Part shown: positions 1,471 to 62,610 of the stretch, one piece after another
How the letters are laid out: the number at the start of each line of letters is the position of its first letter
Numbering within the stretch: the first letter of the stretch is position 1
Source: a virus
Lineage: Duplodnaviria; Caudoviricetes
Virus record (IMG/VR): IMGVR_UViG_3300025000_000055
Length of the DNA stretch: 64,000 nucleotides
Reading direction: 5' to 3' (one strand)
The notes under the pieces: generated by a model
Told to the model about the DNA's origin: nothing
The model's database searches: none
The model's input: only the letters and a program-made list of their open reading frames with translations
Made by a program: the position numbers and the translations under genes

Positions 1471-1482
1471 AACATATTTATA
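1471..1482 (+). promoter_or_regulatory. late promoter AACA-N6-TA (representative copy)
   Basis: Also + at 3792, 44539, 62564; - at 12138, 13106, 15134, 22932, 23431, 31753, 32993, 40417, 62504. Confidence 0.7.
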
Positions 1483-1517
1483 AAAAATCCTAATACTGAA
1501 AGGTGGTAAATAAGAAT

Positions 1518-2579
1518 ATGGCTATTTTTAATAGAAGTGGAAACGGATTTAATATACCCTCATATAGTGGGTACGACTGTTTGGTAAATGGTGACTTGGT
1601 TGCAGCTCAGGAGGGTTTTGAGGATCAACTGGCCATTATCGAATCTATTCATACAATGGACATGGAAGAAATTAATATGGAAAATGATATTAAAGTTTTA
1701 CGTGAATCTGGTGGAGATGAAATTAAAATTGAAACTCGTATGCAAGAGTTTGTAACCGTAACTGAAGGTGCTATGAGTAGTGTTTGGGAAAAAATTAAAG
1801 CTTTTTTCAGTAAAATGTGGGGTAAATTGAAGCAATTCTTTGCTTCTGTCATTCGTTTTTTTGATGGGTTGTTTAAAAGTGGTAAAGAATTTGCTACTAA
1901 ATATGAAAAAGAACTTAGAAGATTAAGTCTTTCTGGATACAAACATAAAATGTTTAATTATACCGAATTAGATAGTAACAACCACGTATCTAATGGTATT
2001 GAAGTTGCAATGAATGTTGTTGACCAAACCGGAGCTTTGAAGAGTTTTTCTTCTGAAGCTGACGCTAAAAAATGTTTGGAAGATATGGAAGAAAACAAAG
2101 AAGAAATTATAAATAAGGTCCGTGGAACTTTTATAGGTGGTGGTTCCAAAGACAATGAAGATTATAAAAAAGGATTATTTTCACACTTTAGAAGTGGTGC
2201 TAAAGATAGTGAAGATATTGAAGAGCAATCTGTTAATATTGGGAATATTATCACCGCTTTGATGAGTGACAAGTTTTCTAAAATGGCGGCTGATTCTGAA
2301 AAATCTGCTGAAAAATCATTCACTACGGTTTTAAAAGAAATTACCGGGTATGAAAAGGAATTTGGAAAATCTGTTGATGACAAAAATAAATCAGAAGATA
2401 AGAGAAAGCTTGCTTCTGTTCAAATTTCTATTATGCAAAAATATTCAACATTGTTTAGTGAAGCTAAAAATATCGCTCTTGAATATTTTGGGGCATGGAA
2501 ACACGCTATTACTGAAAGAGAGTCAGTATATAAGCAAGTATGTGTAAGTGCATTTAGATACAAAGAAGATAAGAAATAA
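1518..2579 (+). CDS. inner head protein, paralog 1
   Basis: ATG 1518 (MAIFNRS) after AGGTGG; acidic propeptide ending VTEG, then amphipathic SVWEKIKAFFSKMWGKLKQFF; late promoter at 1471. Confidence 0.75.
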   Translation: MAIFNRSGNGFNIPSYSGYDCLVNGDLVAAQEGFEDQLAIIESIHTMDMEEINMENDIKVLRESGGDEIKIETRMQEFVTVTEGAMSSVWEKIKAFFSKMWGKLKQFFASVIRFFDGLFKSGKEFATKYEKELRRLSLSGYKHKMFNYTELDSNNHVSNGIEVAMNVVDQTGALKSFSSEADAKKCLEDMEENKEEIINKVRGTFIGGGSKDNEDYKKGLFSHFRSGAKDSEDIEEQSVNIGNIITALMSDKFSKMAADSEKSAEKSFTTVLKEITGYEKEFGKSVDDKNKSEDKRKLASVQISIMQKYSTLFSEAKNIALEYFGAWKHAITERESVYKQVCVSAFRYKEDKK

Positions 2580-2645
2580 TCAATAATGAATTATCAATTG
2601 ATAAACTAAACTTGAGTTTAAAAAATCAAAGGAGGACACAGTAAA

Positions 2646-3728
2646 ATGGCTATTTTTGGAAATAAGAGAAGCTCTTTAAATGACGATTTTGATATTTCAA
2701 AATATGACCACATTCAACCTACCACAGAAGCACTGGAACAAATTATAACCGAATCTGCTAAAGATTCTTATAAACTTCGTGCCGGTATGTATGTATCAGA
2801 TGTCATGATGGAACAAGCTGTATTGTTTGAATCAGCTGACCCAGAAGTTCTTTTGGAAGCCTTTGGCAAAGGTTTTTTTGCCAAAGTAAAAGATATGTTC
2901 GTAAAAATGTGGAATGCTGTTAAAGCTTGGTTTGAAAAAATGAAAAAATCTCTTGTTATGTTTTTCTCTTCGGGTAAAACTTTTGTAGATAAGTTTGAAA
3001 ATGATCTACGGAAAAAGAATGTCAAAGGTTATAAATATAAGTCATTTAAATATACCGCAAGTAAAGGTGATGCCTTTGCCAGCAAAATACTAAGTACAAT
3101 TGATAGTACTGAGAATGAATACGAGAATAAACTTGGTGGTTTGGATGTAAGAAGTTCGTCCAAACATAAAGATGCAATGGATTCCAAAAAAGATAATATG
3201 AAAGAAGAATATGACACTAACGATGATAAAGAATCTTTATTTAAGAGTATGGGTGTTGATTCTATTTCTGAATTACAAGAAGAATCATACCAAGAATATA
3301 GAAATGGTTCTAAAGAAAAAGAAGAATTTGAAGATTTTGAAAATAATAGCAAAGATGATATGATGAAATTCATTAAGGATAGTAGTAAAAATTTAGCCGA
3401 TCTTGAAAGATATCAGAAAGATATGGATTCACATTTTAGTAAAATTGTTAAGGCTATTGAAACGGCTGGTAATAAATATAAGAATGAAGAATTTTCTAAA
3501 GTTTCACCATATGTCTCTCATAGTGTTGAAATGTTGAGATTTTGTATGTCAATTCGTTCAGCATTAAGTAAAATGCATGTTGAATATGTAAAAGAAGCTG
3601 CCAGTGAATTTGAATCTATTTTAAAAGGTTATTTAAGATTTAAACCGCTTAAAGAAAGTCTTGATGTTAGTCATGACGACAAAACTGATACTACAAATAT
3701 TTTTGAAGCGGCAATGCGTTTGGTTTAA
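2646..3728 (+). CDS. inner head protein, paralog 2
   Basis: MAIFGNKRS start with GGAGG RBS; LLEA followed by GFFAKVKDMFVKMWNAVKAWF; same layout as paralog 1. Confidence 0.75.
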   Translation: MAIFGNKRSSLNDDFDISKYDHIQPTTEALEQIITESAKDSYKLRAGMYVSDVMMEQAVLFESADPEVLLEAFGKGFFAKVKDMFVKMWNAVKAWFEKMKKSLVMFFSSGKTFVDKFENDLRKKNVKGYKYKSFKYTASKGDAFASKILSTIDSTENEYENKLGGLDVRSSSKHKDAMDSKKDNMKEEYDTNDDKESLFKSMGVDSISELQEESYQEYRNGSKEKEEFEDFENNSKDDMMKFIKDSSKNLADLERYQKDMDSHFSKIVKAIETAGNKYKNEEFSKVSPYVSHSVEMLRFCMSIRSALSKMHVEYVKEAASEFESILKGYLRFKPLKESLDVSHDDKTDTTNIFEAAMRLV

Positions 3729-3733
3729 TATAT

Positions 3734-3773
3734 TACATTAGATGAATAGTGAATAAACTATTCATCTAATGTA
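3734..3773 (+). terminator. intrinsic terminator, 17-bp stem
   Basis: TACATTAGATGAATAGT / ACTATTCATCTAATGTA followed by a T-rich tract. Confidence 0.75.
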
Positions 3774-3831
3774 TTTTATATTTTCTATGAAAACAAATAA
3801 ATAAGAAAAAAAAAGGAGCTGAATATTATCT

Positions 3832-4911
3832 ATGAATTTAAAGAATATTTTTAATAAAAATATTATATGTAATAAACCAACATCACTTTTATTAACCACT
3901 GATAATATTGATTTTGATACAAGTCAATCTTGTTTAGAATATTTTATATTATTAGAAGAAAAATATTTTAATATTAATAAAAATCATTTACAATCAGCCC
4001 ATATTGGTATTAAAGATAATAATATAGAAATATTACAAGAGGGGTTTGGTGATTTTATTAATTCGGTTATTTCATTCTTTAAAAATCTTTTAGATAAATT
4101 TAAAGAATTTATGAAAAGAATCTTTATGGTTATTTATGCATATCTTGGTGATTTTGAAAAGTTTTTAGATAAATATAAAGAAGAATTAAGAGGTTTAGAC
4201 CCTAAGTTTAGTATTAAGGGATTCAAATATACTTTTAAATCAAATATACCAAATTTAGAAATTATTGATAACATAATTAATTCTTATAATAGTGAATTGA
4301 ATGATATTGATAATATGACAAGAGATAAAATTATAGAACAAAGAGAAAAATTTATGTCAACTACTAATTTGAATAAAATTAGAGCTAATATTATTGGTGT
4401 AACAGGTGAAGTATCATCAGAAGATTACTTAAAAGATGTTAAAAAGATATTTAGGGATAATAATGATGAAAAAATAGATATTGATGTAAATAAATCATTC
4501 TTAACAACAATTATAGCAGATTACCCATTTTTAAAAAAAGAATATAGTGATTCTATTAAAGAAAGAGATAATATAATTGTAATTATAGAAAAAATTAAAT
4601 CTTTTTTTGAAAAAAGTGCATCAGTTTATTATAAGGGTACTGATAAAACCATTGGGGTTAAATTATTAAATAGAAATGGTAATAAGATTCAAATTAATGA
4701 CACTGTTGAAAAGAATCATAGTGAAAGTAAAATTAATTTAATTAACACCTTTTTTAGTTTCAAATTTACACAATCAAAAGAAATTGGTAGTATCTGTACA
4801 ATAGCTTGTATTGAAAAAGCTAATGCACTAAAAGAATGCCTATCTTTTTATAGAGAAACTATTAAAAGATGTGCATTTAAAGGACCTAAGAAATCAACAG
4901 AAGATGATTAA
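3832..4911 (+). CDS. inner head protein, paralog 3
   Basis: LQEG followed by FGDFINSVISFFKNLLDKFKEF; late promoter at 3792. Confidence 0.7.
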   Translation: MNLKNIFNKNIICNKPTSLLLTTDNIDFDTSQSCLEYFILLEEKYFNINKNHLQSAHIGIKDNNIEILQEGFGDFINSVISFFKNLLDKFKEFMKRIFMVIYAYLGDFEKFLDKYKEELRGLDPKFSIKGFKYTFKSNIPNLEIIDNIINSYNSELNDIDNMTRDKIIEQREKFMSTTNLNKIRANIIGVTGEVSSEDYLKDVKKIFRDNNDEKIDIDVNKSFLTTIIADYPFLKKEYSDSIKERDNIIVIIEKIKSFFEKSASVYYKGTDKTIGVKLLNRNGNKIQINDTVEKNHSESKINLINTFFSFKFTQSKEIGSICTIACIEKANALKECLSFYRETIKRCAFKGPKKSTEDD

Positions 4912-4933
4912 AAAAGATTATGAGGTGAATATA

Positions 4934-7993: not shown

Positions 7994-8608
7994 TTAAGTT
8001 AAATATTTTATTAGTGTATATTTCATCATAAATTTCTTAATATTCTCAATATAATAATTTATAAATTTTTTTATAATACCTTTTTTCTTATTCCATTCCA
8101 TCTCATAATTAAGATATTCTTTCATTAATAAATCGGCCACATCATTAGCAAATTTTTCTTCAGGGTTGTCTTCATGTATACCTTTAGCTGAACACATCTC
8201 ATTATTTTTATAATAATCAAAAAAATCTATATTAAACCTTTCTTTAATCCATTTAATTTGAAACAAAGTAAAATACATATGTAGTATTTTACTATTATCT
8301 ATAGCAAGATGTGTTAATTCATGAAATATTGTCCAAAGTATAATTTCTTTATTAAAATTTTCATTTATAAATAATACTATTTCCTCATGTGTTGGTACAC
8401 AAAAACCATTAACATGATCAACAACAGTATAGTTTCCTGTACTATAACATAAATGGTTATGAAATATCGTTTTATATTTTATATTTATTAAACAAATACG
8501 AGCATCTATTTCCTTACCAAATACTAAATCAGAATTTATATTATTAATTATTTCAATAATATATTCTAAATCATCATGGTTAACATCAAAATTAAAAAAT
8601 TCTATCAT
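7994..8608 (-). CDS. HExxH zinc metallopeptidase-like protein, tandem paralog
   Basis: IFHELTHL plus EEKFANDVA; start MIEFFNFDV after AGGAG parallels MINFVDFDV of the neighbour. Confidence 0.7.
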   Translation of the reverse strand: MIEFFNFDVNHDDLEYIIEIINNINSDLVFGKEIDARICLINIKYKTIFHNHLCYSTGNYTVVDHVNGFCVPTHEEIVLFINENFNKEIILWTIFHELTHLAIDNSKILHMYFTLFQIKWIKERFNIDFFDYYKNNEMCSAKGIHEDNPEEKFANDVADLLMKEYLNYEMEWNKKKGIIKKFINYYIENIKKFMMKYTLIKYLT

Positions 8609-8806
8609 TTTATTTTTTCTCCTTTTTTTAAATCTCATCTTGCAAATGTATATTCATTTGTTTTACAATCTCCATATTAGGATGCAACACTTCATCCAAT
8701 CTTTAATACTGATTTTTCTTAACTATCTTTTCTATTTATTATAATAAAGTTTAAAAGAAAATAAATAATAAATCAGAGATAATATTATCTCTGATTTATT
8801 ATATTC

Positions 8807-11530: not shown

Positions 11531-12112
11531 TTAATTGTCAATGTTATTTACGATACTGGAATATTTGTCATTCGCATCATCGTCTTTACTGAAAAATTTG
11601 TTGGTTTTAATAACTGTGAGAATTGATTTATTTTTCTTTAACTTAACTACCTCGGGAATGCTAATTGCATGTATCCTATTGTCAACTGCAAACATTAGTC
11701 CCAGCACTTTAAAAATATTACACTCCGAATAAACAATTCTTTCACGAACATCTGAACCAATTTTAAATTCTTTGGTAACAGAGTATAAAGCATTTTTTAA
11801 TTTATCACTAACTCTATAATTACCAGAATCCATTTTTCTTCTTAACTGTTCAGGAACATTCTTTAATTCGGAGTCAACATCAGCAGAATTCATATGGAAC
11901 ATAGCATAAACTTTCATTTCCGGTTTAGCTGAACCATCCCTTGTAGCAACTGCTCTAATTGCTGCAACACCATCAATCTTTCTTAGATCTCTAAAATAAT
12001 TAAATAAAAAGTTTTCAATATCTTCTGACATAACATTATAAATCACACCGATAGGTTCAACTTCCACCGACCTATCCAATAAACCAATTTTTTTTTGTTC
12101 TCCATTACTCAT
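11531..12112 (-). CDS. hypothetical protein
   Basis: 193 aa with AGGAGG RBS; both promoter motifs upstream. Confidence 0.7.
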   Translation of the reverse strand: MSNGEQKKIGLLDRSVEVEPIGVIYNVMSEDIENFLFNYFRDLRKIDGVAAIRAVATRDGSAKPEMKVYAMFHMNSADVDSELKNVPEQLRRKMDSGNYRVSDKLKNALYSVTKEFKIGSDVRERIVYSECNIFKVLGLMFAVDNRIHAISIPEVVKLKKNKSILTVIKTNKFFSKDDDANDKYSSIVNNIDN

Positions 12113-12201
12113 GTAATCTCTACCTCCTAAATTTATTTATTTTTTTGTTTAATTAGATATAAAAATCTATTTAGATATTTTAATAATATATAATTAAAAT
12201 A

Positions 12202-13086
12202 TCAATTTAATTTCTTCACTGTTTGATAATCATTTAACATGATTCTATAAATTTTATTAGACCATTTAACACTAGAAGAATATTTTGTATTTATTTGTTC
12301 AACGGTCTTTAAGTTTTTTCCTATATAATATTTTTTAATTAATTTTGCAAAACTATATACACTTTCAGATTTACTTTTAAAAGTAAATGCCTTATTATAA
12401 GGGTCGTTGTCTACAGCATTTAAACCAAATAAATTATTTTTATTTCTTGCAATTTGTGAATTACCATCACCACTTTCTAATCTAGCTACAGCTAATATAA
12501 AAAAGGCGTTTATTTCATATTGTTGCTCAGCCTTTAAAATAGCTTCTTCAATTCCTACTAATTTTGTTTTAGATAAAAGCTTTTTTAAATCTTCTATATG
12601 TAAATTAGATTTTGAATTTACTATACTTATAGGTCTTCTTATAAATAAACTACGAGAAACATTTTTTTGTTTTCTAATAAAATTATCTTCATTAACAATT
12701 TTTAAATAATTTTTATTAACGAATTCATTATCTTTCGTTTTATACCAATCATCAATTTTATCTATTATTTCTATAAAGTCATTTTTATATAACATACCAA
12801 TACATTCAGAATTTACATTATTTGATTTCCTTATATTTAATGTATTACTAGTAATAATATAATATTCCGATTCCTTTCGATTATTCCCTTCTGGTTTTTT
12901 AATATTATTTTCTTTATTTCGTTTGTACTGCTCTTCTTGAATTTGAATAGGTTTACTTGAGTTTCCTTTATTCTTTTTTTTAATTTCTTCTGTAGTTTGG
13001 TTAATAAGATGATTAAAAAATATTGTAGTTACTAATGCTGAAATAATAAATAAAAATAAATAAATAGTAATTTTGTTTTTTGACAT
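12202..13086 (-). CDS. membrane-anchored SH3b + GH73 N-acetylglucosaminidase (cell wall hydrolase)
   Basis: N-terminal TM helix; SH3b LNIRKS...IG.LYKND.IEI; GH73 AVARLESG and NNLFGLNAVD. Confidence 0.85.
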   Translation of the reverse strand: MSKNKITIYLFLFIISALVTTIFFNHLINQTTEEIKKKNKGNSSKPIQIQEEQYKRNKENNIKKPEGNNRKESEYYIITSNTLNIRKSNNVNSECIGMLYKNDFIEIIDKIDDWYKTKDNEFVNKNYLKIVNEDNFIRKQKNVSRSLFIRRPISIVNSKSNLHIEDLKKLLSKTKLVGIEEAILKAEQQYEINAFFILAVARLESGDGNSQIARNKNNLFGLNAVDNDPYNKAFTFKSKSESVYSFAKLIKKYYIGKNLKTVEQINTKYSSSVKWSNKIYRIMLNDYQTVKKLN

Positions 13087-13141
13087 ATTTTTTACCCCCT
13101 TAAATTATAATAATGTTTTATATATGATAAAAAGCTATTAA

Positions 13142-15104: not shown

Positions 15105-15164
15105 TATATTTCACTCCTTTATATTTGTCACTTTAAATAATTGTTTTTATTTAATTAAAATTTC

Positions 15165-22914: not shown

Positions 22915-22995
22915 CCTTTCTTTTAAGCTATTATGTAAATGTTTTTTATATGTGCAAAATATAAATAAATAAAAAAAATCAGGTAGATATTTTAT

Positions 22996-23403: not shown

Positions 23404-23522
23404 ATTAATTTAACCCCCTTAAATATATTCTAAATTATTGTTTTATGTATATTATTAATTTACTTATAATACATTTTAGTAATATTTGTTTATTATTTTA
23501 AGGTGGTGTTGTATAATATATT

Positions 23523-31728: not shown

Positions 31729-31774
31729 AATATATCAAACCTCCAATCTTTTTATTAAATTGTTTAGATGAAAA

Positions 31775-32965: not shown

Positions 32966-33069
32966 AATTAAATCATCTCCATTCATTCTAATTATTATAA
33001 TGTTAAAATGTCTTGGAACATAGAAAAAAAATAAACCCATATAAAGATTTATGGGTTTATTTTTATTTT

Positions 33070-35073: not shown

Positions 35074-35113
35074 AAATCCAATTAATGGAATATATTTTTT
35101 TGTTGTATTTATC

Positions 35114-36166
35114 TTAAACTCCCCCTTTTATATACTTTAAAACATCCTTAGTCCTTTTAATCAAATTAATTTCATTCTTTTTAACACCATAATCCTTTCC
35201 CAAACTATTATAATATAGCTTTATCTTATTAACAAAAGGATTTAATTCTTCAAATAGATTTTTATAAAACCATGGTTTTTTATCTTTATCTGAAAATATA
35301 TTAATATCAACATTCCCTATTATACCCGATTGAATATAGAATTTTAATACATTAGTAAATCCACACCCGCATACTGCTGTATAAATTGTATTTTCTTTTT
35401 CTTTATCAAATATATTATAGTACAGACCTAAAATATCAAATACCCCTTCCGCTATATTGATAGTAATAGTTTTAGGTAATAATAAATCAATACTATTAGG
35501 AATTGAATAAAATTTTCTAGTATTATCTAAATTTTTATATATACTATACTTAAAATATCTTTTATACTTTCCACTTATATCTCTAAATACAATATGTTCG
35601 TTTTTAGCTGATAAAAATCCTACATAATTATTATGTAGAATACTAGCTTGTTCCTTATTAGTTGTTAAAGTTTTTATATTATTATGTCTAAGAAACTCTC
35701 CAAAATTAAATACTACTTTTAATTCAATTAATTCTTCTTCAGTTATATTAATACCAAGTCTATTTTCAATATAGTATTTCTTTTCTTTTATTAATTCTTT
35801 TAGTAATGACATTGGTATTTTAAAATCAAAGATATTATTTTTTATACCCAATTTTTTATTAATTTTTCCTATGGTTTCTTTATTATAAGATAATAACTTA
35901 CTATTAATTTGTAAATCATTAATTCTAAATGTTCTTAGTATGGATGGAGTCATAACTCCTGATATATCACATAAAAAACAATGAAAAATAATTGGTGTAT
36001 TTAATTTCAATTCAATTTTTATAAAGAAGTGAGCACTTGTGCTATTCTTTACACTATCACCACAAAAAGGACAACGAATCACTATCTGTGATTCGTTGAC
36101 ACTTTTAGATGAATGCACACTAAGTAATTTATTTCTTATTCTTAGTTTAAAAGAATAGTTATCCAT
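35114..36166 (-). CDS. DNA primase (T4 gp61/DnaG-like)
   Basis: Zn ribbon CPFCGDS..CFLCD; TOPRIM IAEGVFD and SDKD. Confidence 0.85.
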   Translation of the reverse strand: MDNYSFKLRIRNKLLSVHSSKSVNESQIVIRCPFCGDSVKNSTSAHFFIKIELKLNTPIIFHCFLCDISGVMTPSILRTFRINDLQINSKLLSYNKETIGKINKKLGIKNNIFDFKIPMSLLKELIKEKKYYIENRLGINITEEELIELKVVFNFGEFLRHNNIKTLTTNKEQASILHNNYVGFLSAKNEHIVFRDISGKYKRYFKYSIYKNLDNTRKFYSIPNSIDLLLPKTITINIAEGVFDILGLYYNIFDKEKENTIYTAVCGCGFTNVLKFYIQSGIIGNVDINIFSDKDKKPWFYKNLFEELNPFVNKIKLYYNSLGKDYGVKKNEINLIKRTKDVLKYIKGGV

Positions 36167-36180
36167 AATATCAAAACCTC

Positions 36181-37728
36181 TTATAATTGATTTAAGAAAC
36201 TTAAGAATTCATCAGATACAATATCTTGATTGATTTCAAGTTTTTCTCCAAGTTTATCAAGATGATCATAATCGACAATTGTAAATGTTGAATTTAAAAT
36301 AGTTGATAATAAATTTAGAATTAAATTTGATCTCTTAACTTCTTGAAGTGTGGAATATTTATCTTGTATTAATGATTGGTATAATGGGGTTTCTTCTAAT
36401 TTATTTAAAAATTTTGTGTTTTGAATAGTACGAGTATTTAGTCGTCCCTCAATATTTCCACTTATAATCTGAGGAAGATACAAACCACCCTGAATTTGTA
36501 ACCTTCTTTTTAATAATATAACAAGAGTTATATATTGCTTTCTTGTTAATAAATTTAAATCTCTGTAACCACCAAAATGTTTGGCATAAAAATAATGAAC
36601 TAATTGTACTTGAAACTTATTTACTTTATGAAATTTTTTATAAAAAGTAATTTCATCTTTAGTTACATCAACACCAATATTTTTCTTGATGTTTTTAATT
36701 GTACGTTTAATATTTACCTCAGATAATATTATCAATGATTCATCTATTTTATTAGAATTCATTTCAAACTTATCTAAACCACTTAATCCATCCTCACCAC
36801 TTTTATCTGCACTTAATTCAACTAAATTAACCTTATAATTTTTTTTAATAACAAAATATAATTGTTTTTCTAGTATAAAAGAATTGAAATTAACAATATT
36901 TTTATTAAAGACATATTTAAACATAGTTTCGGTTATAATATTCTTCTTCAATAAACTATTGAGATATATTAATGGATCAACACCAAATATTTCTTGTTGT
37001 TCCCACATTGGTTTATTACTAGATAAATTTTTGTTTATTTTAGCGGATACAGTTACCATTAGCTTATTATAAATATTAATACCTTTACCATATAAATCAA
37101 ATAAACCTTTATAAAAGTTATAAATATAGTCAACTTCTTTCTTAACATTATTTACATTAATATATTGAAATACTACTGGAATCATTATCTTAATAGACAT
37201 TGAAATCATCATCATTATTTTAGCATGTTCATTCGTTATCTCTAATGATTCACTATATTTCTTCTTATCACTACTTGTTAAATCTATATAGTAATTATCT
37301 TCAACCATTTTAGTAATTTTTTCTTTCATTGTTTCTGTGAATAATACACCATATAAAAACTTAATAAAGGTTTTAGGTTTCTTAATAGGGCTACTTTTAT
37401 TATCAATGAAATACTTAAGTTTAAAATATGACATTAATAATTCATTATTAATGTCATAAAATTTAATAAAATAATTCAGATAATGAATTATACCTTTTTC
37501 ATTTATAATTATACCATTTTCATTTTTTTTATTGGTATTATTAAGTTGATTCACATATGACTCTTTTTTAATAATAAAAACATTTAATGTACTTGTACTT
37601 TCCTTTTTAAAAATTTTATCAAATGGGATTATTATTAATTTCCCATCACATTTAATAATTTTATCTTCTTCTTCGGGCTCCCATTCATCCACTCTTATGA
37701 AATTTGTATCGGTAACACAATCCACCAT
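36181..37728 (-). CDS. putative sigma-like promoter-specificity subunit of non-virion RNAP (AR9 gp226-like)
   Basis: 515 aa helical protein two genes from the chaperonin, as for AR9 gp226/gp228; early promoter at 37796. Synteny-based inference. Confidence 0.55.
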   Translation of the reverse strand: MVDCVTDTNFIRVDEWEPEEEDKIIKCDGKLIIIPFDKIFKKESTSTLNVFIIKKESYVNQLNNTNKKNENGIIINEKGIIHYLNYFIKFYDINNELLMSYFKLKYFIDNKSSPIKKPKTFIKFLYGVLFTETMKEKITKMVEDNYYIDLTSSDKKKYSESLEITNEHAKIMMMISMSIKIMIPVVFQYINVNNVKKEVDYIYNFYKGLFDLYGKGINIYNKLMVTVSAKINKNLSSNKPMWEQQEIFGVDPLIYLNSLLKKNIITETMFKYVFNKNIVNFNSFILEKQLYFVIKKNYKVNLVELSADKSGEDGLSGLDKFEMNSNKIDESLIILSEVNIKRTIKNIKKNIGVDVTKDEITFYKKFHKVNKFQVQLVHYFYAKHFGGYRDLNLLTRKQYITLVILLKRRLQIQGGLYLPQIISGNIEGRLNTRTIQNTKFLNKLEETPLYQSLIQDKYSTLQEVKRSNLILNLLSTILNSTFTIVDYDHLDKLGEKLEINQDIVSDEFLSFLNQL

Positions 37729-37839: not shown

Positions 37840-38616
37840 CTATATTTTCGGTTTTTGAATATTTGACTTTTTAGCTTTAATTTTAGATTTAGGTTGTACT
37901 TTATTAATAATAGATTTTTTTACACCTGAAATTTTTTCAACTACTTTATTCTTAATTCTACTTTCATTTTTCTTCTTTTCTAATATATTCTTCTTACGTC
38001 TAATTTCATTATTAGAATTTTTGATATCAATTTTTATTTGTTCCATACTTCTAACAGATTTAAAAAAATCAGTTTTATTTATTTTCTTAGAATGAGAATT
38101 AAGAAATGATTTTGATAAATATTTACTTCTATTTAATAATATATGAAAACCAATAAAATATATTGATTTTTCGAAACTTATAATCTCTCCCGGATTTCTA
38201 ACTATAGGATTCCCTTCAATAATTTCATCACTGAATTTCTTATTAAGAAAATCTATTAATAAACCATATTGATTAAAAGCATATGCATAGGTAAAAGTAA
38301 AATTAGGAGAATTTGAAAAGAATTTAACATAGTAATGTTCTAAAGTAACATCTCTACTAAAATCTTCTTCATCCATAGTAAATAATATAACAACATCATA
38401 TGTATTATCTCTTTCTGTTTCACTTGGTAAAATAAAGTGAAGAATATAGTCATCACCATCTCTATAAATATTAGGTTCAGATATTTTCTTCTTTTTTATT
38501 AAAGTATAGTAACGTTTATTAAGATCATCTCTAATAAGTTGTCTATTTGTAATTGCTGTACTACCTTTACCCATAGGATTATCAATAAAATCTTTTAATG
38601 TTTGAAGTATAAACAA
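37840..38616 (-). CDS. hypothetical protein with basic C-terminal tail
   Basis: 258 aa with AAGGGG RBS. Confidence 0.7.
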   Translation of the reverse strand: MFILQTLKDFIDNPMGKGSTAITNRQLIRDDLNKRYYTLIKKKKISEPNIYRDGDDYILHFILPSETERDNTYDVVILFTMDEEDFSRDVTLEHYYVKFFSNSPNFTFTYAYAFNQYGLLIDFLNKKFSDEIIEGNPIVRNPGEIISFEKSIYFIGFHILLNRSKYLSKSFLNSHSKKINKTDFFKSVRSMEQIKIDIKNSNNEIRRKKNILEKKKNESRIKNKVVEKISGVKKSIINKVQPKSKIKAKKSNIQKPKI

Positions 38617-38704: not shown

Positions 38705-40381
38705 TTATTGTTGTTCTCTGTTATTTATCATAATAGAAATATATTGATTACTAGATAATAATAAAGATATTATTGATGTTACAGCTTTTAATATTTCAAT
38801 ATCTGTTTGACAAGAATTAATAATGTCTTTAGAAAAATCATCATAAACTAAATTCCAACATTCTTTTCTTTTAATACATTCTTCAATTAATAAATCAATT
38901 GAAGGATTAGTTCCTTTAGATTTATTATCTAATACTTTAGAAAACACTTCAATGAAAGTTTTTCTTAATAATTTAAAGAATTTCTTCTCGACATCATTAA
39001 ATTTAATTCCATCATTTAACAATTCATCTATAACAATTGGAATAATTAAATTTCCACCAATATTATATCCATATTTAAATGCTGATTCACAGGCTTTAAC
39101 AGCATCCTCAACTAAGTCATAATTAGTGGTTTTCACTAAAGACGAATTACCACCAATATTTATTATACCCATTTTACAAGTCAATTTGGATACTCTCTGT
39201 TTTAAATCATAAATTTGAGTATTAACAATGTTTAAATTCTGATTTGTTTCTTCAACCTCTTTAAATTTAGCAACAGCATCATTCATATATACATCATAAG
39301 TATTTTGTTTAATAGAGTTAAAACCTTTAATAATAGTTGTCTTACTTCCAATTAAAATTTTATCAACTTGGCCGATATAATAGTTAATATACCCGTCATC
39401 TTCTTTTTCCAAATCATACATAGTATTTTCACTAACAAGCATTGCACCAGTTAACATACAGAAATCATTATAGAATAAGTTTTGTAGATTATTAAATAAT
39501 GAAACTCTTGTATAAACAGTTTTACTTGTTCCAGTTGATCTAAATTCTATATTTGATGTTTGTTTTATATAATTTAATAATAAACTATCATAATGGGGGG
39601 CTACAACAACAACACGTCTATTAGTTGAAATACCTAATTGAATTACTTTAGATATAACTTTATCAAAATGAATTTTTTCAATTTTATGATCAAACATGAT
39701 GATTAAAGGATTTTCAATCTCACATATACCATTATCATTTTCTGCATATATACTGTCAAGATAAGTGATATTAGCCTTATACCCCTCAATTATTTCACAT
39801 GATGTGATATCGGTTTTTGAAGGAGAAAATTCAATACTCGGATTATCAGTTTCTTTATATATTTTATGAATCATATCAGATAGGATGTTATCCCCATTAG
39901 TTGAAATCATTGCCAATTGATAAATCTCTTGATAATTATTTTCTTTAGTTATTTTGATAGAATTTTGTAATATTTTATCAGTAATCATTCTAACACAAAT
40001 TGATAAAATATCAGTAAAATCCCTCGGTCTTATCTTTTTTAATTCTTCGTCAGAATCTAAAAGTTTTAGTAGTGAGTTTGCTGCAACTAATGAAGAAGAA
40101 CTACCATCTCCAACTTTAATTACAACCTGTGCCGCTATATTAATTAATAATTGCTTGATATTATTATCAATACTATTATTGGAATTGATATTTTTTAATA
40201 TCTGCCAACCATCTTTGGTAATATGCATTTCTCCAAATTTTTCAATAATAGTATTTGAACCATACGGGCCTAGACTTTTTTGTATAGCAGAAGAAACCTT
40301 CTCAAAAATCATACGAATTCGTTGTTTAAATTCATCTTCCCCAATAATATTCCAGTCATTTTTGTTTTCAAAAGTAAGCAT
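38705..40381 (-). CDS. groEL: phage chaperonin, GroEL-like
   Basis: SLGPYG, ITKDGWQIL, VGDGSSS, VEDAVKA..A, GG..I; ATG 40381 after GGAGG. Confidence 0.92.
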   Translation of the reverse strand: MLTFENKNDWNIIGEDEFKQRIRMIFEKVSSAIQKSLGPYGSNTIIEKFGEMHITKDGWQILKNINSNNSIDNNIKQLLINIAAQVVIKVGDGSSSSLVAANSLLKLLDSDEELKKIRPRDFTDILSICVRMITDKILQNSIKITKENNYQEIYQLAMISTNGDNILSDMIHKIYKETDNPSIEFSPSKTDITSCEIIEGYKANITYLDSIYAENDNGICEIENPLIIMFDHKIEKIHFDKVISKVIQLGISTNRRVVVVAPHYDSLLLNYIKQTSNIEFRSTGTSKTVYTRVSLFNNLQNLFYNDFCMLTGAMLVSENTMYDLEKEDDGYINYYIGQVDKILIGSKTTIIKGFNSIKQNTYDVYMNDAVAKFKEVEETNQNLNIVNTQIYDLKQRVSKLTCKMGIINIGGNSSLVKTTNYDLVEDAVKACESAFKYGYNIGGNLIIPIVIDELLNDGIKFNDVEKKFFKLLRKTFIEVFSKVLDNKSKGTNPSIDLLIEECIKRKECWNLVYDDFSKDIINSCQTDIEILKAVTSIISLLLSSNQYISIMINNREQQ

Positions 40382-40463
40382 TTTTTTTACCTCCAATTAT
40401 TTTTTCTTTTAGTCTTTAGAAATATGTTATTATCATAATTATTTTTTAATATTTAGGGTTACG

Positions 40464-44453: not shown

Positions 44454-44560
44454 CTCCTTTAATATAAGTTTTTGATAAAGAATTAATATTTTGTTATTGA
44501 GTTTCTTATTTTTTATTTTAATTGAAAAATGCCTATAGAACAATTAATTAAAAAAATGCA

Positions 44561-45034
44561 TTGAAAGGTTGTGTTATTGTGATATTTAATAAAAGTGGAA
44601 AAACAGATACTTCTACTGAAGATTTAAGTCCAGAATCATTATCTTTAATTATTGAGTCTATGATGAAAGATGAGTTAAGTAAAGAAGAATTGGAAGCTTT
44701 CTTAGAAAACTCATCTGAAGTTAATTCGGCTATGGGTGATGACATATTACTTGAAAGAACTATTGTCAGAATGGATAAATATGCAAAATTGAATAGGGCT
44801 CAAAAAATAGCAGTATTTACTATTGCTAAAGAAAAGAAAAACCCTAAATTTAAAAAATTATTAACTATTTGGAGAATTGAAAGATTCCTAGAAAATGAAC
44901 TTATGAAACAATACGGTAATGAAGGTATGCGTCGTGCTAAAGCTAGTTACAATAAAGCACGAACCTCAACTTCTAAGATCGTTAAAACTGTTGCTAATAA
45001 GGTTCATAGTCAGTTTAACAGTGGAATTAAATAA
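44561..45034 (+). CDS. putative head protein with acidic propeptide and basic C-terminus
   Basis: Late promoter at 44539; acidic region ends ILLE, then Lys/Arg-rich. Confidence 0.55.
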   Translation: MKGCVIVIFNKSGKTDTSTEDLSPESLSLIIESMMKDELSKEELEAFLENSSEVNSAMGDDILLERTIVRMDKYAKLNRAQKIAVFTIAKEKKNPKFKKLLTIWRIERFLENELMKQYGNEGMRRAKASYNKARTSTSKIVKTVANKVHSQFNSGIK

Positions 45035-45072: not shown

Positions 45073-45159
45073 TTTCTATGTTCCATCGGTTAAAATATAT
45101 ATTATTAATAAGTAAAAAACAAATGAATAACTTATAATAAAGGAGAGGAATGATGTTAA

Positions 45160-48100
45160 TTGGAGAATAACATAAAAGAAATTATCGATCTATTAAGTAA
45201 TAAGGTTTTTGTTATTTCTGATATAATGGAAAGTAAAGAAACCTTTAATGACATATTAGAAACTGTTTATGACTATTTAAAACAAGGTTTCGAAATCAAA
45301 GAATTGAGAACATGTCCAACCTATTTTAAGTTTAAAGAAGAGGGTGAAATCCATGTATTACAATTAAGACATTTTCTTACCAATTTAATGTTTTGGGAAC
45401 CATTAATGAGATTTGATTATTCTGATAAGATAGATGAGACATATATTGTTGATTGTACTAAAATGTCAAGTAAACTAATTAAGAATTATATTGATAATAA
45501 GATAGTTATACCTTATAAAAGAATAATTCCTAATAAGAAAATGAACAAAGTTATTCATGATATGATTTATAATCTATCTAGAATTTCAAGAGATTTTAAT
45601 ATCATATTAGGTTTATCCATGAATCTTGAAACATTTATTGATGTTGCCAAAAGGAACCCAAGATTTAATGAAATTATTAGAACCCAATTGGATGAAGATA
45701 TGCAACCAACTGAAATTGAAGCATATTTAGATAAATTAATGTATGAACAAATGGATATTTTAAAAAATGACGAGGAGGGAAATTTATTAAAACCAATACT
45801 TAAATCAGGTGCTGGTATAAAAAGTAAACAATTGGCGGAGTTTTCAATTTCTTCAGGGTTAAATATTAGCCCCGTATATAGGCGACTATGTGCGTAAACC
45901 TCTTTAATTGCTGGAAAATCTCTCAAACTCTACTATTCTACCAAAAAAATATTAATAAAAGATGGTGTTAATATTGAAATTAGTTAGTGTTGATTACTAT
46001 AAAAAAGAAAGGCAATATACTATTACCTTTTTTAAGAATAAAAATGGATATAAAACAAGAACTAAAAGATTCACTTATTCTGAAAATACCCATGGTCCTT
46101 TTACTAAATTTCTTGCTATGTATACAGCAAAAACAGGTAAGAGATTATACCACTGGTTTGTTACCGATGGTATATATACCTCAGTTTTTATATATAATAA
46201 AACTTATGGTATTAAACGTATGCTAATAGACAATGAATTTATAGATATTGTAAGAAATCATAAAATTAATATAGTAAAAAATAAAACGGGTCAAGATATT
46301 TTTTATGCAATAATAAAAATGAATGGTAGAAATATTCATGTACATCGTCTTATTATGGGTTTAGGAAAATATAATAATGATCCAGTAGATCATATTTTTC
46401 ATGATTCTTTAGACAATAGGAGATTAAATCTACGTATTTGTACACCTAGTATTAATAATAGAAATTCAAGATTACGTGTTGATAATAAAAGTGGTATACA
46501 AGGAGTTTATTTTAGTAAGCATAGAAAAACATATATTGCAGAAGTAAGGGATTTAAATGGTAAAAAAATTAGAAAACACTTTAAAATAAAGCATAATGGT
46601 AGAGAGAAAGCCATTGAATTAGCAAAACAATGGCGTGATGAAATGGTAGAAGAATATTATGAGAGAAAATCAGCAGCGAAGCCTGAATTTCAGGAACGTT
46701 CAACGACTATCAAAAGCATGTTTATTATTAATATAAAAATATAATAAACATAAGCGAGTAGAGTAGGGCTAGAAGCTAATGCTAGTTCGAAACGGGAGGC
46801 ATCTCTATGAGATGATGATATAGTCTATTATCCTAGAGTAATTTAGGGAAGTTCATAAGAGAACTGTATAGGCGTTGCGTCCTATATGAATTAAAAGTAA
46901 AACCGACTCTTAGTGGTAACACTATACCTATACCAATTAATACAAATTATATAGTTGGTGGACTGAGAAATATATCTAATTATTATATTGATTCCCTAAA
47001 CTATATTGGGGCTTCATACAGTGATGTATGTTGAATAACTTCTTTAATTGTCGGGGAAGCTCTTAGAGCTTTTTATTATATAATAAAAAGATTGAGTAAT
47101 CCGCAGCTAAGATTCCTATTAGTTATAGGAATAAAGTTCAACGACTATCCCCCATTGGCTTTGAAATAAGCAATAGGAGTAGGGCTCAAGTGAGTGGGTG
47201 AGAATCCCTTAAATCGAAATAGGAAGCATCTCTATGAGATGAAGATATAGTCTGGTATCCTAATGAAAGTTAGGGAAGTTCATAAGAGAACTGCATAGAT
47301 TAACGACCTATGTGAACTTACGAGGTGGAAGAAAGTCTTTAATTATGAGCAAACTTGAAATGGGTAAATTGAGTTGCCCATGCTTCTTTAATTGTCGGGA
47401 AATCTCTTAGAGCCTAAAACTACCAAATCATAGTAGTGATATTATGGTGGCTTAGTCTAATCAACTAAGGTATGGTAACAAGGTTTTAGGATTGAGTAAT
47501 CCGCAGCTAAGTTATTTTGTTATGTGTGATATTTTTATATAATTAAAAAAATCTAAAAAAGGAGGTGATATAATATGGGAAAAGAAATATGGAATAAAAT
47601 TATTATTGATGATGAAAATACTAAATATAGTATTAGTTCTTATGGAAATATAAGAAATGATATTACAGGATTAATTTTAAAACCATTTAAAAATCATGAT
47701 GACTATCTTGTTATTACATTATACCATAAAGGTAAAAAATATCTTAGAAGAATTAATATTTTAGTGGCTAAAGCTTTTATACCTAATCCTTTAAATAAAC
47801 CTACAGTTAATCATAAAGATGGTATTAAAACTAATAATTATGTTTATAATTTAGAATGGGCTACTTATTCTGAACAAAACATTCATGCATTTAAAATGGG
47901 TTTAATGAAACCAAAAGTTGGAGAACAATCTCATTATAATAAATATCCAGAGACTACAATTCATAAAATATGCAAATTATTAGAAGATGGATATGACCGT
48001 AAGCAAGTATCTGAAAAATTAAATGTACCAAAATCTCTAATAAAACATATTATAGGTGGTGGATCATGGAAACATGTTTCTTCACTATATATAATAGATC

Positions 48101-49713
48101 GTGAAAAGACTAAAACCAAAATATTAACTGGTTCTAAATCATATTATAGTAAATATTCTGAAGAAACTATTCGTGAAATTTGTTATCTATTACAGAAAGG
48201 TAAAAGTAGGAAATATATTAAAAATAAGCTTAATTTACTTAATACGAGGATAATAATAAATATCCAAGAAGGTACAACATGGAAACACATTTCTTCCCAA
48301 TATGTAATAATTTATGTCCCACATCATATCATACACAACAAAATAAAAAGTTCAACGACTATCAAAAACTTATTCACCATTAAAATAAATATTGGTGAAT
48401 AAAGTGAGTAGAGTAGGGCCTAAGTAGGTGGGTGAAATTCCCTTAAATCGAAATAGGAAGCCACCCAAGAGGGTGAAGATATAGTCTGGTACCCTAGTGA
48501 AAACTAGGGAAGTTCATAAAAAGAACTGCGTAGAGTAACGATTTACGTGAACACCAGGAACTCGGGTCATTTTTCGCGTATGGTCATGCTGCTAGTTTCA
48601 AGTATTAATTTATCAAAAACTGTTGAATCATGTAATAGTGTACATCCAATAAAAATTGAATTATCTTCTAAAGAACATTTGATAAGAATGAGAGGTCGAT
48701 ATTATAGAACTATGTATTCTAGAAATTATCAATTGTTAAAAGGAGATGAATATAATTTAATAAATAAAACTATTTTTATTAAATCACCTGCTACATGTGC
48801 ATGTAAAGATGGTATATGTAAAATGTGTTATGGTGACTTATCATATATAAATAAAGATATTACAATAGGTGCATTTGCTGGTACAAAAATTACAGAACCA
48901 GTATCGCAAAATATTTTATCATCTAAACACTTATTAACAACTAAATCACAAAAAATAGAATTCAATGAAGAATTTTATAAGTTTTTTAATATAAGTGGTA
49001 ATGAAATAATTATCAATGCAAGTGAAGAAAATGATGATTTAGATGATTTTAGTTTACTTATAATTAAATCTAATATTAAAACAATTGCTGATTATGATGA
49101 TAATGATATGGAATTTAATGAATATATAAATCTATTTCATGTATATAATAAGAAAACTGGTGAAATGATTGAAATAAAAGAAACTGGGGAAAAAGATTTA
49201 TATATATCACCTGAATTAAGAAAATTATTTAAGAAGAAAAGTAAGAAAGAAGTTTATGAAATTGATTTTAAAACACTTGATGATGACAATAGAATATTTG
49301 TTATTGAAGTAATTAATAATGAGTTAACTAGACCATTATATGATATTATTCGTTTAATCGATAGAGTTGATTATAGAATTATACATTGGGACTGTGTAAC
49401 AATTGACCAAATGTGTCAAAAGATGTTGGATCTATTAATAGAATCAGAGATTAATTCTGATTCTGTTCATGGTGAATTAATTTTAACACCATTGTTAAGG
49501 GATAAAGAAAATATATTAGAAAGACCTAAATTTAATAGATATTTTAATGATGATAGATACCAAATTCTAACAGTTAAAGCTGCTTTAGAAAAACATCCTT
49601 CAGTATTAGTCGGTTTATCATTCCAAGCACTTGATAGACAATTAACAAATCCATTAACATTTAGAAAGAAAGAAAGCTCATTTATTGATCCTTTCTTTAA
49701 AGAAAGACCATAG
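45160..49713 (+). CDS. rpoC: RNA polymerase beta-prime C-terminal half; spliced, exons 45160-45859, 46898-46997, 47323-47365, 48559-49713 (665 aa)
   Basis: Joins restore SSG|LKPTLSGNTIP, YYIDSL|GGRKSLI and EMG|NSGHFSR (bridge helix); Zn site C..C....IC..CYG; exon total 1998 nt is in frame. Confidence 0.9.
45860..46897 (+). mobile_element. group I intron with HNH-AP2 endonuclease
   Basis: P1 GGGT|T pairs with AGCCC; AATCAGCAGC, TTCAACGACTA, GATATAGTCT; terminal G at 46897. Confidence 0.88.
45962..46744 (+). CDS. intron-encoded HNH endonuclease with AP2-like DNA-binding domain
   Basis: HVHRLIMG, VDHIFHDSLDNRRLNLR, KSGIQGVYF..YIAEV. Confidence 0.85.
   Translation: MVLILKLVSVDYYKKERQYTITFFKNKNGYKTRTKRFTYSENTHGPFTKFLAMYTAKTGKRLYHWFVTDGIYTSVFIYNKTYGIKRMLIDNEFIDIVRNHKINIVKNKTGQDIFYAIIKMNGRNIHVHRLIMGLGKYNNDPVDHIFHDSLDNRRLNLRICTPSINNRNSRLRVDNKSGIQGVYFSKHRKTYIAEVRDLNGKKIRKHFKIKHNGREKAIELAKQWRDEMVEEYYERKSAAKPEFQERSTTIKSMFIINIKI
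46998..47322 (+). ncRNA. ORF-less group I intron (325 nt)
   Basis: P1 CCCT|A pairs with TGGGG; AATCCGCAGC, TTCAACGACTA, GAAGATATAGTCT; terminal G at 47322. Confidence 0.9.
47366..48558 (+). mobile_element. group I intron with HNH endonuclease
   Basis: P1 TGGGT|A pairs with TGCCCA; same core motifs; terminal G at 48558. Confidence 0.88.
47575..48402 (+). CDS. intron-encoded HNH homing endonuclease, paralog of 27021-27905
   Basis: [46 protein letters not shown]. Confidence 0.9.
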   Translation: [275 protein letters not shown]

Positions 49714-60435: not shown

Positions 60436-60567
60436 CTTTATTTTTAATAATAAATGTAGATAGTTTTATCTCTACATTTATTATTATTTTTTTAGTATTC
60501 TTAACATATTATTTTATATATTATAATTACATATATAGAAAAAATTTAATAATAGTGGGGTGGAATA

Positions 60568-60834: not shown

Positions 60835-60838
60835 TAAT

Positions 60839-60875
60839 AAAATAAGTACAGTGAAAAAATCACTGTACTTATTTT
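60839..60875. terminator. bidirectional terminator
   Basis: AAAATAAGTACAGTGA / TCACTGTACTTATTTT between convergent genes. Confidence 0.75.
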
Positions 60876-60880
60876 TTTTG

Positions 60881-61606
60881 TTAAATAATAAATATTGGAC
60901 TCTGTTCTAAATGACTTACATCCCTATATTTCTCAATCATTTCTTTTCTATCAGATTCACTGTTAGACCAATCATCTATTTTTAGTTGAATTGTTCCATA
61001 AGCTGTTTGAATTTCATTATAATGCTTTAATGTATTATATAAAAATCTTTTAACATCAATTAATGCTAATTCATAAAAACTTTCCCATTGTGTTGATGGT
61101 ATTGTGGCTAAATTTGGTGCATGAGCTAATCCAACCTCAACATCAATTTCTCCATACATTGTTGCATAATTATATAATACTAATATATTAGGTTCTTGAA
61201 ATTTAAATGTCATAGGTGGAGCTGCAAGTGACATCAAATCAGCACTAGCTTGACCCATCATCAGTGATTCATATGTTGATATTTCACCATCAAATATTGG
61301 AGATGTGTATCCATTAGAAAAAGATTTATTTTTAGGATTAACATTTTTTATCATTATAATTTTCTTATCACCAAATAAATCTGGTATTACATATGACGAT
61401 TCACTATAGTTTGAATTTAAACATGTTAAAGTTCGTATATCTAAATTCATTTTTAATGTATAAGGAAAGAACACACTATATGTTGTTAAAGTCTTTAATT
61501 TAATAACATTAAATAAAGTGTCATCAGGTTTTTCAAATGGAAGTGATAATCCATATATACCTAAATCCATTTTAATAGAAGTTAATAAATCACTAACATT
61601 CATCAT
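60881..61606 (-). CDS. putative neck protein (T4 gp13-like)
   Basis: Downstream of the protease; ALIDVKRFLY and GTIQLKIDDW resemble neck proteins. Confidence 0.5.
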   Translation of the reverse strand: MMNVSDLLTSIKMDLGIYGLSLPFEKPDDTLFNVIKLKTLTTYSVFFPYTLKMNLDIRTLTCLNSNYSESSYVIPDLFGDKKIIMIKNVNPKNKSFSNGYTSPIFDGEISTYESLMMGQASADLMSLAAPPMTFKFQEPNILVLYNYATMYGEIDVEVGLAHAPNLATIPSTQWESFYELALIDVKRFLYNTLKHYNEIQTAYGTIQLKIDDWSNSESDRKEMIEKYRDVSHLEQSPIFII

Positions 61607-61634
61607 TTTTTATCACCACTTATTTTTTTATTTT

Positions 61635-62465
61635 TTATATCCTTGACATATAATGGGTAATATCTCTTTTTATTTTATCCTCAATTCTAACAATAAAAGT
61701 TGAACCATTTTCTTTTAAAATAGCATTTTTAAAATCAGATGTAACTTCCATACTTTCAGTTACAATTTCATAGATATTAGAAACTAATTTAATATTCTTC
61801 GATTCAGTTTTAATAAAATCAGCAATTTGAGATTCTTGAACTACTGTTAATACATTTTCTTGAAGACTGTTTCCACTAAGTTCAATATTTCTATTAATCT
61901 TTTTAATTGGTATGGAATCATCCCTATATGCTTTATCATGACTGGGTAAAATAACCCAATCATATGTAACAACATGCCCTCTACTATTGATTAAACCACC
62001 GGTAGCAGTTTTAACAACTTTAGCTAATGCTCTTAAACTAAAAGCAGGTTCCATTCCTTGTAATATAGATTTAGTCATATCTTTACCAAAATGATCATTA
62101 TCTAATGTTTGAATAGTCCCTCTTAATAAATTACCAGTTAAATTATATGTTAATATTTTATGGGATATTAATTTAGGATCAATGACTAATATACGTTTAG
62201 GATCATCTGATGTTGGATGTCCAGCTTCTCCACACCAAGAATTTTTTAATCTTAATTCATTTATATGAGGTGCACCTAATGATTCCATCATTGGTTTATC
62301 AATATATGTTCTACCATTTCTATTTCTTATATTAAATTCTTGTAATATTGTATCAAATTGTAAATAAAATAAATTATCTCTATTAATTCTTTGAATATTA
62401 GTTGGCTTACTTGGGTCCGAAACACACTCTCTTATGAGATAAGCAACAACTTCTTGTTTTTGCAT
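61635..62465 (-). CDS. prohead protease (T4 gp21/phiKZ gp175-like)
   Basis: NRNGRTY, GEAGHP (His), AFSLRA (Ser), VTYDWVILPS; late promoter at 62504. Confidence 0.85.
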   Translation of the reverse strand: MQKQEVVAYLIRECVSDPSKPTNIQRINRDNLFYLQFDTILQEFNIRNRNGRTYIDKPMMESLGAPHINELRLKNSWCGEAGHPTSDDPKRILVIDPKLISHKILTYNLTGNLLRGTIQTLDNDHFGKDMTKSILQGMEPAFSLRALAKVVKTATGGLINSRGHVVTYDWVILPSHDKAYRDDSIPIKKINRNIELSGNSLQENVLTVVQESQIADFIKTESKNIKLVSNIYEIVTESMEVTSDFKNAILKENGSTFIVRIEDKIKRDITHYMSRI

Positions 62466-62610
62466 TTTTTATATCAACTCCTTCTAATTTTTATAAGTAT
62501 TTTTAAATTATTGTTTTGGTTGTTCAGATAATTCTTACAAATAAAGTCTTTATTTGTAACACAAACAAATAGTTAAATGAAAATTGTAAATTTTAAGAGG
62601 GGTGAAGCTC

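Follow-up and report, generated by a model that had tools for sequence, protein, structure and literature searches.

A 64,000-nt stretch of phage DNA from the IMG/VR record IMGVR_UViG_3300025000_000055 (the window) was analyzed with respect to two of its features: a gene for a protein resembling gp226, the promoter-specificity subunit of the non-virion RNA polymerase (nvRNAP) of Bacillus phage AR9, and the sequence AACA-N6-TA that recurs upstream of its genes. In AR9/PBS1 the nvRNAP with gp226 recognizes late promoters of the form 5'-AACA-N6-TA-3' (PDB 7S01, 7UM0; PMC5449584, PMC9209446). An earlier note on the window had proposed that its phage shares this transcription logic with AR9 and, like AR9, may have DNA containing deoxyuridine (dU). 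The gene content described below suggests a different combination: it is likely that an AR9-like transcription system operates here on thymine DNA.

The window has a G+C content of 24% and encodes jumbo-phage functions, among them a divergent family-B DNA polymerase, helicases, a GroEL-like chaperonin, virion proteins and a head maturation protease. It is a part of an uncultured groundwater AR9-like jumbo phage with a genome of ~230 kb, placed in a large metagenomic sister clade of the uracil-DNA jumbo phages of Bacillus, Staphylococcus, Listeria and Yersinia. The clade comprises more than 160 gp226 clusters, many of them on contigs of 200–260 kb and some filed under Clostridia. The sister genome G001 (IMG/VR contig 3300025000_000053, 249,853 bp, 100% complete according to CheckV) shares 83–86% DNA identity with the window. 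Its ends (1–20,800 and 228,500–249,500) are diverged copies of one 20-kb region, only ~85% identical to each other; because both contig ends are copies of the same region, the true genome size should be about 228 kb, and the record seems to combine two strains that occur together. At least three strains co-occur: strain A (G001), strain B (the carrier of the ThyX protein P0122) and strain W, to which the window belongs. Groundwater metagenomes yield contigs 100% identical to the window, and proteins of strain W are located on a contig of 233,207 bp.

The product of the gp226-like gene matches AR9 gp226 (7s01_A) in a phmmer search against PDB with an E-value of 9.4e-15 (residues 32–486 against 17–442) and phrog_25005 with an E-value of 3e-26. 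Alignment of the clade profile with the profile of six gp226 orthologues from dU phages by hhalign gives a probability of 99.9% (E 2e-34, 450 columns). The AF2 model of the protein (pLDDT 87.8) has 7s01_A as its best Foldseek match (E 3.5e-18), accompanied by 7um0_A and, in third place, by gp68 of phage phiKZ (8que_B); the C-terminal domain alone reaches a target-normalised TM-score of 0.76 to 7um1_A. A tblastn search with AR9 gp226 against the window and G001 returned nothing at E 1e-3, despite the clear phmmer and hhalign matches. The gene lies in a block in which the order primase-gp226-g227-GroEL is the same as in AR9 (Table 1). Judged by sequence, predicted fold and gene order, the protein is a true homologue of AR9 gp226, as the earlier note had supposed.

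Exact AACA-N6-TA matches were counted in the 80 nt upstream of the 72 genes called in the window and compared with 1000 dinucleotide-preserving shuffles. There are 17 sense matches in 17 genes against 4.2 ± 1.9 in the shuffles, none of which reaches 17, and two antisense matches in the same upstream regions (a sense to antisense ratio of ~8:1). The expectation by chance is 4.05 per 72 genes, or 5.6% per 80 nt, close to the roughly 5% estimated before. The motif starts at -31 to -54 relative to the start codon. The window as a whole has fewer matches than its shuffles (67 against 102 ± 9), and they cluster upstream of genes. All 13 sites listed in the earlier note are exact and lie on the strand of the following gene; four further sites were found (marked as new in Table 1). 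The site at 32993 would fall inside the open reading frame (ORF) if TTG at 33097 is the true start of the virion structural gene. The description of the downstream genes as mostly structural holds only in part. It fits virion proteins, the head maturation protease and the endolysin; GroEL, DNA polymerase, the beta'-C subunit of nvRNAP and many genes without assigned function also follow such sites. Two short intergenic regions carry back-to-back divergent pairs, namely 44484(-)/44539(+) in 44454–44578 and 62504(-)/62564(+) in 62466–62601; the first pair precedes the DNA polymerase gene, whose AR9 counterpart has an early promoter.

The same motif emerges when every shape of the type 4mer-N3..9-2mer upstream of genes is scanned without bias. 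In the 228-kb genome of G001 AACA-N6-TA is the top motif apart from those of the ribosome-binding site, with 58 sense and 13 antisense matches at 10–18 expected, and 43 of the 58 sense matches lie at -50 to -35. AR9 processed by the same script gives 70 sense and 15 antisense matches with 12 expected and an identical position peak. In more distant members of the clade the motif is again on top (G005, with ThyA and 33.5% G+C: 58 sense, 8 antisense) or strong (G011, with ThyA: 60 sense, 8 antisense). The early-promoter core of AR9, TATATTAT, is likewise enriched and oriented in G001 (44 sense, 15 antisense, 7 expected), and the phage would appear from these counts to use both AR9 promoter classes, the late AACA-N6-TA and the early TATATTAT. 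At the start site the clade prefers TAA, unlike AR9, where TA is followed by A or T.

Comparison of the window with G001 demonstrates that the motif is maintained. Thirteen sites can be aligned, which gives 18 alignments; in these all 108 cells of the six fixed bases agree, and identity in the 66 surrounding columns is 85%. The motif bases are thus under purifying selection. One genome of the clade departs from the consensus: in G009 (gp226 41% identical, single-domain ThyX, 38% G+C) GACA-N6-TA ranks first, with 32 matches against 2–6 expected, and of its xACA-N6-TA sites 49% start with G and 16% with A. Its consensus is therefore shifted, as far as the sequences tell, at -11, a position that is U-specific in AR9, and promoter specificity seems to be still evolving inside the clade.

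The nature of the DNA itself is addressed by the genes of thymidylate metabolism. G001 carries an operon of thymidylate kinase Tmk (PF02223), a deoxycytidine monophosphate (dCMP) deaminase (PF00383) and a tandem ThyX (PF02511, 108 bits) with the RHR and S-x-R-Y motifs. The phage ThyX is 45–47% identical to chromosomal ThyX of Clostridium species; a phmmer search of the tandem protein against PDB gave no match at 1e-3, despite the strong Pfam match. Strain B has the same Tmk/dCMP deaminase/ThyX operon. For the strain of the window, contig L047 opens with a ThyX C-terminus of 92 residues that lies at the orthologous place and shares 91% identity with the ThyX of G001. The sample from which it originates also yielded contigs with 100% identity to the window, and L047 carries a protein also found on the 233,207-bp contig; because of this common sample and common protein it is assigned to strain W. 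Co-occurrence of the strain B operon with the window in four sequencing runs was not used as an argument, as strain B is a third strain. What lies between ThyX and the DHHA1 gene varies from strain to strain: a gene of the Acb2/Tad1-hairpin family, an anti-CBASS or anti-Thoeris sponge, in strain B (L032:11358–11729), an unrelated ORF of 205 amino acids in G001 (L012:1893–2510) and a protein of 155 amino acids with a hydrophobic N-terminal stretch in strain W (L047:319–786).

All 15 clade contigs of at least 200 kb (IMG/VR genomes G001 and G003–G016) encode a thymidylate synthase, ThyX in eight and ThyA in seven. The two enzymes are perfectly complementary, and neither of them is ever missing without the other being present. 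Among the known or presumed dU phages AR9, BpSp, LPJP1, S6 and phiR1-37, none of the five has ThyA or ThyX, and none has dUTPase. A tree of gp226 sets the dU phages apart on one side of a branch (support 92/80); genomes with ThyA and with ThyX are intermingled on the other. This distribution points to repeated, non-orthologous replacement of thymidylate synthase in the clade, never to its loss.

Markers of the dU pathway, which include three families of thymidine-nucleotide-degrading enzymes, have been described (PMC12697855). None of these three families (Dtm PF06941, YfbR-like PF12917 and Ham1-type Dtt PF01725) was found in G001, and no homologue of the AR9 Dtm (g151, thymidine monophosphate (dTMP) phosphatase) was found by tblastn. 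The earlier note had set the absence of dUTPase and ThyA as a mark of uracil DNA; both are absent from G001, but the function is represented by the Tmk/dCMP deaminase/ThyX operon of strains A and B. It had also suggested a search for dCTP deaminase and Ugi. The first of them has a counterpart, a G001 protein of the dCMP deaminase family homologous to AR9 g221, which may act on dCMP or on dCTP; in thymine phages such an enzyme supplies thymidylate synthase. As the phage would make its own dTMP and thymidine diphosphate (dTDP) and would not remove thymidine nucleotides, thymine DNA is likely, and from gene content the virion DNA most likely holds thymine rather than uracil.

The uracil-reading helix of the gp226-like protein is changed as well. 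In AR9 gp226 residues V206 and I207 of helix 2.1bis provide U-specificity at -10, and Y210 stacks on -9G; V206 is absolutely conserved in dU phages, and the pockets exclude the methyl group of thymine, which clashes with the C-beta atom at 206 and, in the case of -11, with the DNA backbone (PMC9209446). The helix reads S-N-K-P-M-W-E-Q in the window and S-D-V-V-I-W-T-Y in AR9, so that P240, M241 and Q244 stand at the positions of V206, I207 and Y210; MAFFT and hhalign give one and the same register. Between these positions W208 (W242) alone is kept, a residue not described as a contact in the AR9 structure paper, and the dU pockets that the earlier note wished to see compared are accordingly not preserved in their AR9 form. 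AR9, BpSp, LPJP1, S6, SA1 and phiR1-37 all have V-I-W-x-Y/F (in full D-x-V-I-W-x-Y/F). In 46 IMG/VR relatives residue 206 varies among P, Q, T, L, V, A, I, G and M; at 210 only Q and K occur, without any aromatic residue. In the beta-N subunit of G001 R363 of AR9 is kept and K375 is replaced by N. Val206 alone was considered as a marker of U against T and dropped, as two relatives with ThyX (G009 and G010) keep it. The helix alone does not prove tolerance of T, which is suggested here by sequence comparison; the metabolic argument is the stronger one.

A mechanism can be proposed as follows. The nvRNAP holoenzyme with the gp226-like subunit would start transcripts on the A of TA, which lies 11 nt downstream of the first A of AACA; the AACA tetramer (-11 to -8) would play the part of a -10-like element, and the leaders would be 20–43 nt long. 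Supply of dTMP and dTDP would proceed from dCMP deaminase through ThyX to thymidylate kinase. The template strand would then read 3'-TTGT-5', and the gp226 orthologue would either accept the methyl groups or lean on the non-template AACA; the non-template strand is bound by AR9 gp226 too (PMC9209446). The likely adaptation would be the rebuilt helix, with N-K-P-M-W-E-Q in place of the D-x-V-I-W-x-Y/F of dU phages.

Several observations weigh against thymine DNA or leave parts of this scheme indirect. Sequence reads cannot tell U from T. The reading of the AACA-N6-TA sites as late promoters of the nvRNAP holoenzyme is inferred by analogy, with start sites carried over from AR9. The full ThyX operon is seen only in the sister strains A and B; a full-length ThyX of the window's strain was not returned by homology search. 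It is not in the 90% clusters of P0121 and P0122 (strain A/B proteins), a metagenome scan for ThyX recovered only strains A and B, and a walk along the contigs of strain W towards the ThyX region ended at a contig end inside the tape-measure gene. No homologue of AR9 g104 (Ugi) was found by tblastn, and Ugi-like inhibitors, being small and of unrelated folds, could be missed. The dCMP deaminase is 27% identical to the dCTP deaminase of AR9/PBS1, and the Tmk-like kinase could serve as a deoxyuridine monophosphate (dUMP) kinase; PBS2 is known to induce such an enzyme. Any residue other than Gly at 206, as here, might still exclude T through the C-beta clash with the methyl group, and the ThyX-bearing relatives G009 and G010 keep V-I-W.

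These points come together in the alternative favored by the earlier note, a dU-DNA genome as in AR9 with a gp226-like subunit that needs template deoxyuridines. The deaminase would then make dUTP or dUMP, the Tmk-like protein would take the role of dUMP kinase, and ThyX would have no activity, serve another function or be retained for a side need only. The shared AR9 consensus, including AA at -11 and -10, the homologous and syntenic gp226, the Dcd homologue and the lack of dUTPase and ThyA in G001 would all suit such a genome. It is nevertheless unlikely: on the established view phages with U-DNA must suppress thymidylate synthesis and not add to it (PMC8150378), whereas here ThyX shares an operon with deaminase and Tmk in both sister strains and has left a fragment in the window's own strain, the clade has kept a synthase throughout despite its repeated replacement, no thymidine-nucleotide-degrading enzyme of the known families and no Ugi homologue was found, and the helix motif invariant in dU phages is lost. 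Thus the shared transcription logic is supported, and the uracil DNA is probably wrong.

Thymine-derived or partly substituted DNA, with hypermodified T or a mixture of U and T such that the promoter bases differ from plain T, has a slimmer chance. A T-derived base would agree with the conserved dTMP pathway, and jumbo and other large phages often modify thymidine; G001 lacks, on the other hand, a ThyA-type dUMP hydroxymethylase, and no modification enzymes appeared in limited family scans, with no dedicated search made. Ready assembly of clade contigs from many standard metagenomes speaks weakly against heavy modification. That the AACA-N6-TA sites are not nvRNAP promoters at all, being a by-product of AT-rich intergenic composition or sites of another factor, is very improbable: the motif is short and AT-rich and some sites are located in front of genes whose AR9 counterparts are early (DNA polymerase, nvRNAP beta'-C), but neither the excess over shuffles nor the sense bias within a narrow range of positions would be expected, full conservation of the motif while its flanks drift argues against it, as does the co-varying first base in G009, and the sites behave like those of AR9, for which promoter function of the motif is proven (PMC5449584, PMC9209446).

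An AR9-like system on thymine DNA, the reading preferred here, can be placed among known phages as follows. With AR9/PBS1 the window's lineage shares the homologous specificity subunit in its conserved gene order, split beta and beta' genes with introns and homing endonucleases, the late consensus with its start-codon distance and enrichment statistics, and the enriched early core; it differs in the rebuilt helix and the beta-N replacement, in encoding ThyX, Tmk and dCMP deaminase, in the absence of detected homologues of g104 and g151, and in its start-site preference. The Staphylococcus S6/MarsHill-like phages, Listeria LPJP1, Bacillus BpSp and Yersinia phiR1-37, with dU shown or presumed, have gp226 orthologues and the two-polymerase strategy too, but keep D-x-V-I-W-x-Y/F, lack ThyA, ThyX and dUTPase and stand on the opposite side of the gp226 tree. 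Pseudomonas phage phiKZ is a jumbo phage with thymine DNA and a five-subunit nvRNAP whose gp68 is a remote structural homologue of gp226. This protein is equally distant from gp226 and from the sigma factors of bacteria, and the phiKZ enzyme recognizes T-containing double-stranded DNA (PMC9209446); the window, unlike phiKZ, has a clear gp226 orthologue and carries AACA-N6-TA. The engineered V206G variant of AR9 gp226 reads T at -10 (PMC9209446). It resembles the natural proteins in a change at residue 206, and Gly occurs there in two clade members (L070, L093); the window differs from it in having Pro, in belonging to a clade variable at 206 and in the replacement of the aromatic residue at 210.

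Table 1. Candidate late promoters and genes of the gp226 and nvRNAP loci in the window. Each site is an exact AACA-N6-TA match on the strand of the following gene; conservation in G001 is from alignment; "new" denotes sites beyond the earlier list.
Feature	Coordinates	Strand	Position or description	Conservation or basis
Site	1471..1482	+	47 nt before gene 1518-2579	whole 72-nt stretch identical in G001
Site	3792..3803	+	40 nt before gene 3832-4911	motif kept in G001
Site	8651..8662	-	54 nt before gene 7994-8608	new; without alignable G001 orthologue
Site	12138..12149	-	upstream of gene 11531-12112	kept in G001
Site	13106..13117	-	upstream of endolysin-like gene 12202-13086	kept in G001
Site	15134..15145	-	upstream of gene 13185-15104	kept in G001
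Site	22932..22943	-	upstream of 1075-aa multidomain gene 19687-22914	kept in G001
Site	23431..23442	-	upstream of gene 22996-23403	exact match
Site	31753..31764	-	upstream of gene 31477-31728	kept in both G001 copies
Site	32993..33004	-	upstream of virion structural gene 31775-32965	exact match
Site	35093..35104	-	upstream of small gene 34843-35073	new; exact match
DNA primase (AR9 g225 homologue)	35114..36166	-	gp226 neighbour	phrog_19847 E 3e-59; tblastn 32% identity, E 1e-35
gp226-like subunit of nvRNAP	36181..37728	-	promoter-specificity (sigma-like), 515 aa	sequence, predicted fold, gene order
AR9 g227 homologue	37840..38616	-	gp226 neighbour	tblastn 37% identity, E 3e-36
GroEL-like chaperonin (AR9 g228 homologue)	38705..40396	-		PF00118, phrog_5725, tblastn E 1.5e-54
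Site	40417..40428	-	upstream of GroEL-like gene 38705..40396	kept in both G001 copies
Site	44484..44495	-	upstream of DNA polymerase gene 42507-44453	new; kept in both G001 copies
Site	44539..44550	+	upstream of gene 44579-45034 (weak virion-protein match)	kept in both G001 copies
Site	45118..45129	+	upstream of nvRNAP beta'-C gene	new; kept in both G001 copies
nvRNAP beta'-C gene (AR9 g154 homologue)	45160..49713	+	two coding pieces, 45160-45897 and 48547-49713	
Site	62504..62515	-	upstream of head maturation protease gene 61635-62465	kept in G001
Site	62564..62575	+	upstream of gene 62602-63999+	kept in G001

The polymerase to which the gp226-like subunit should belong is also represented. 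The two coding pieces of the beta'-C gene match residues 122–218 and 263–628 of AR9 g154 in tblastn, and between them lie endonuclease ORFs and repeated intron-like DNA; the ORFs 45962–46744 and 47575–48402 have their matches in g190 and g271, HNH homing endonucleases of AR9. The search for core subunits covered beta'-C, beta-N and beta-C, and genes for the latter two were found in G001. Together with the gp226-like ORF and the late and early motifs, these core genes bear out the shared AR9 transcription logic claimed in the earlier note.

A repeated element of ~130–300 bp occurs in the window at 46993–47511, 48411–48551, 26835–26965 and 27950–28041 and in at least 15 copies across G001. It is 77–80% identical to DNA located within or beside an RNA polymerase gene of Staphylococcus phages K, ISP and MarsHill, and probably represents a family of group I introns; the Rfam gathering scan did not match it, and the same scan and a tRNA scan of the window gave no matches. 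Pieces of the virion RNA polymerase beta' gene (AR9 g145 homologue) are located at 26099–26833 and 28079–28795, separated by an HNH endonuclease ORF (27030–27905, g271-like) and followed by a GIY-YIG ORF (29023–29637).

The host of the phage can be approached from the same data. A lead towards Clostridia is given because the phage ThyX is nearest to clostridial enzymes and because gp226 relatives are filed under Herbinix (213-kb contig) and Romboutsia ilealis (P0103, 244-kb contig). The clostridial host suggested by the earlier note is thus plausible, and for the groundwater strain itself it is only a lead.

Recognition of the gp226 type has so far been described only in phages with known or presumed uracil DNA. 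For the whole widespread clade of AR9-like jumbo phages the balance leans modestly towards thymine DNA combined with a retained template-strand promoter AACA-N6-TA. If this is true, the gp226 orthologues of the clade would read thymine naturally, with the aromatic residue at 210 replaced by Gln or Lys and a free residue at 206, and the strict uracil dependence of AR9 would be a specialization of its lineage and not a property of the promoter class. A sister clade with the same consensus and an obligatory thymidylate synthase would offer natural material for comparison, addressing the residues that discriminate U from T, a possible move of recognition to the non-template strand and the order in which the two states arose. 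It also means that AACA-N6-TA together with a gp226 homologue should not serve to call uracil genomes in metagenomes; the absence of ThyA and ThyX in combination with the V-I-W-x-Y/F helix separated the two groups in the present sample (synthase in 0 of 5 against 15 of 15 genomes).

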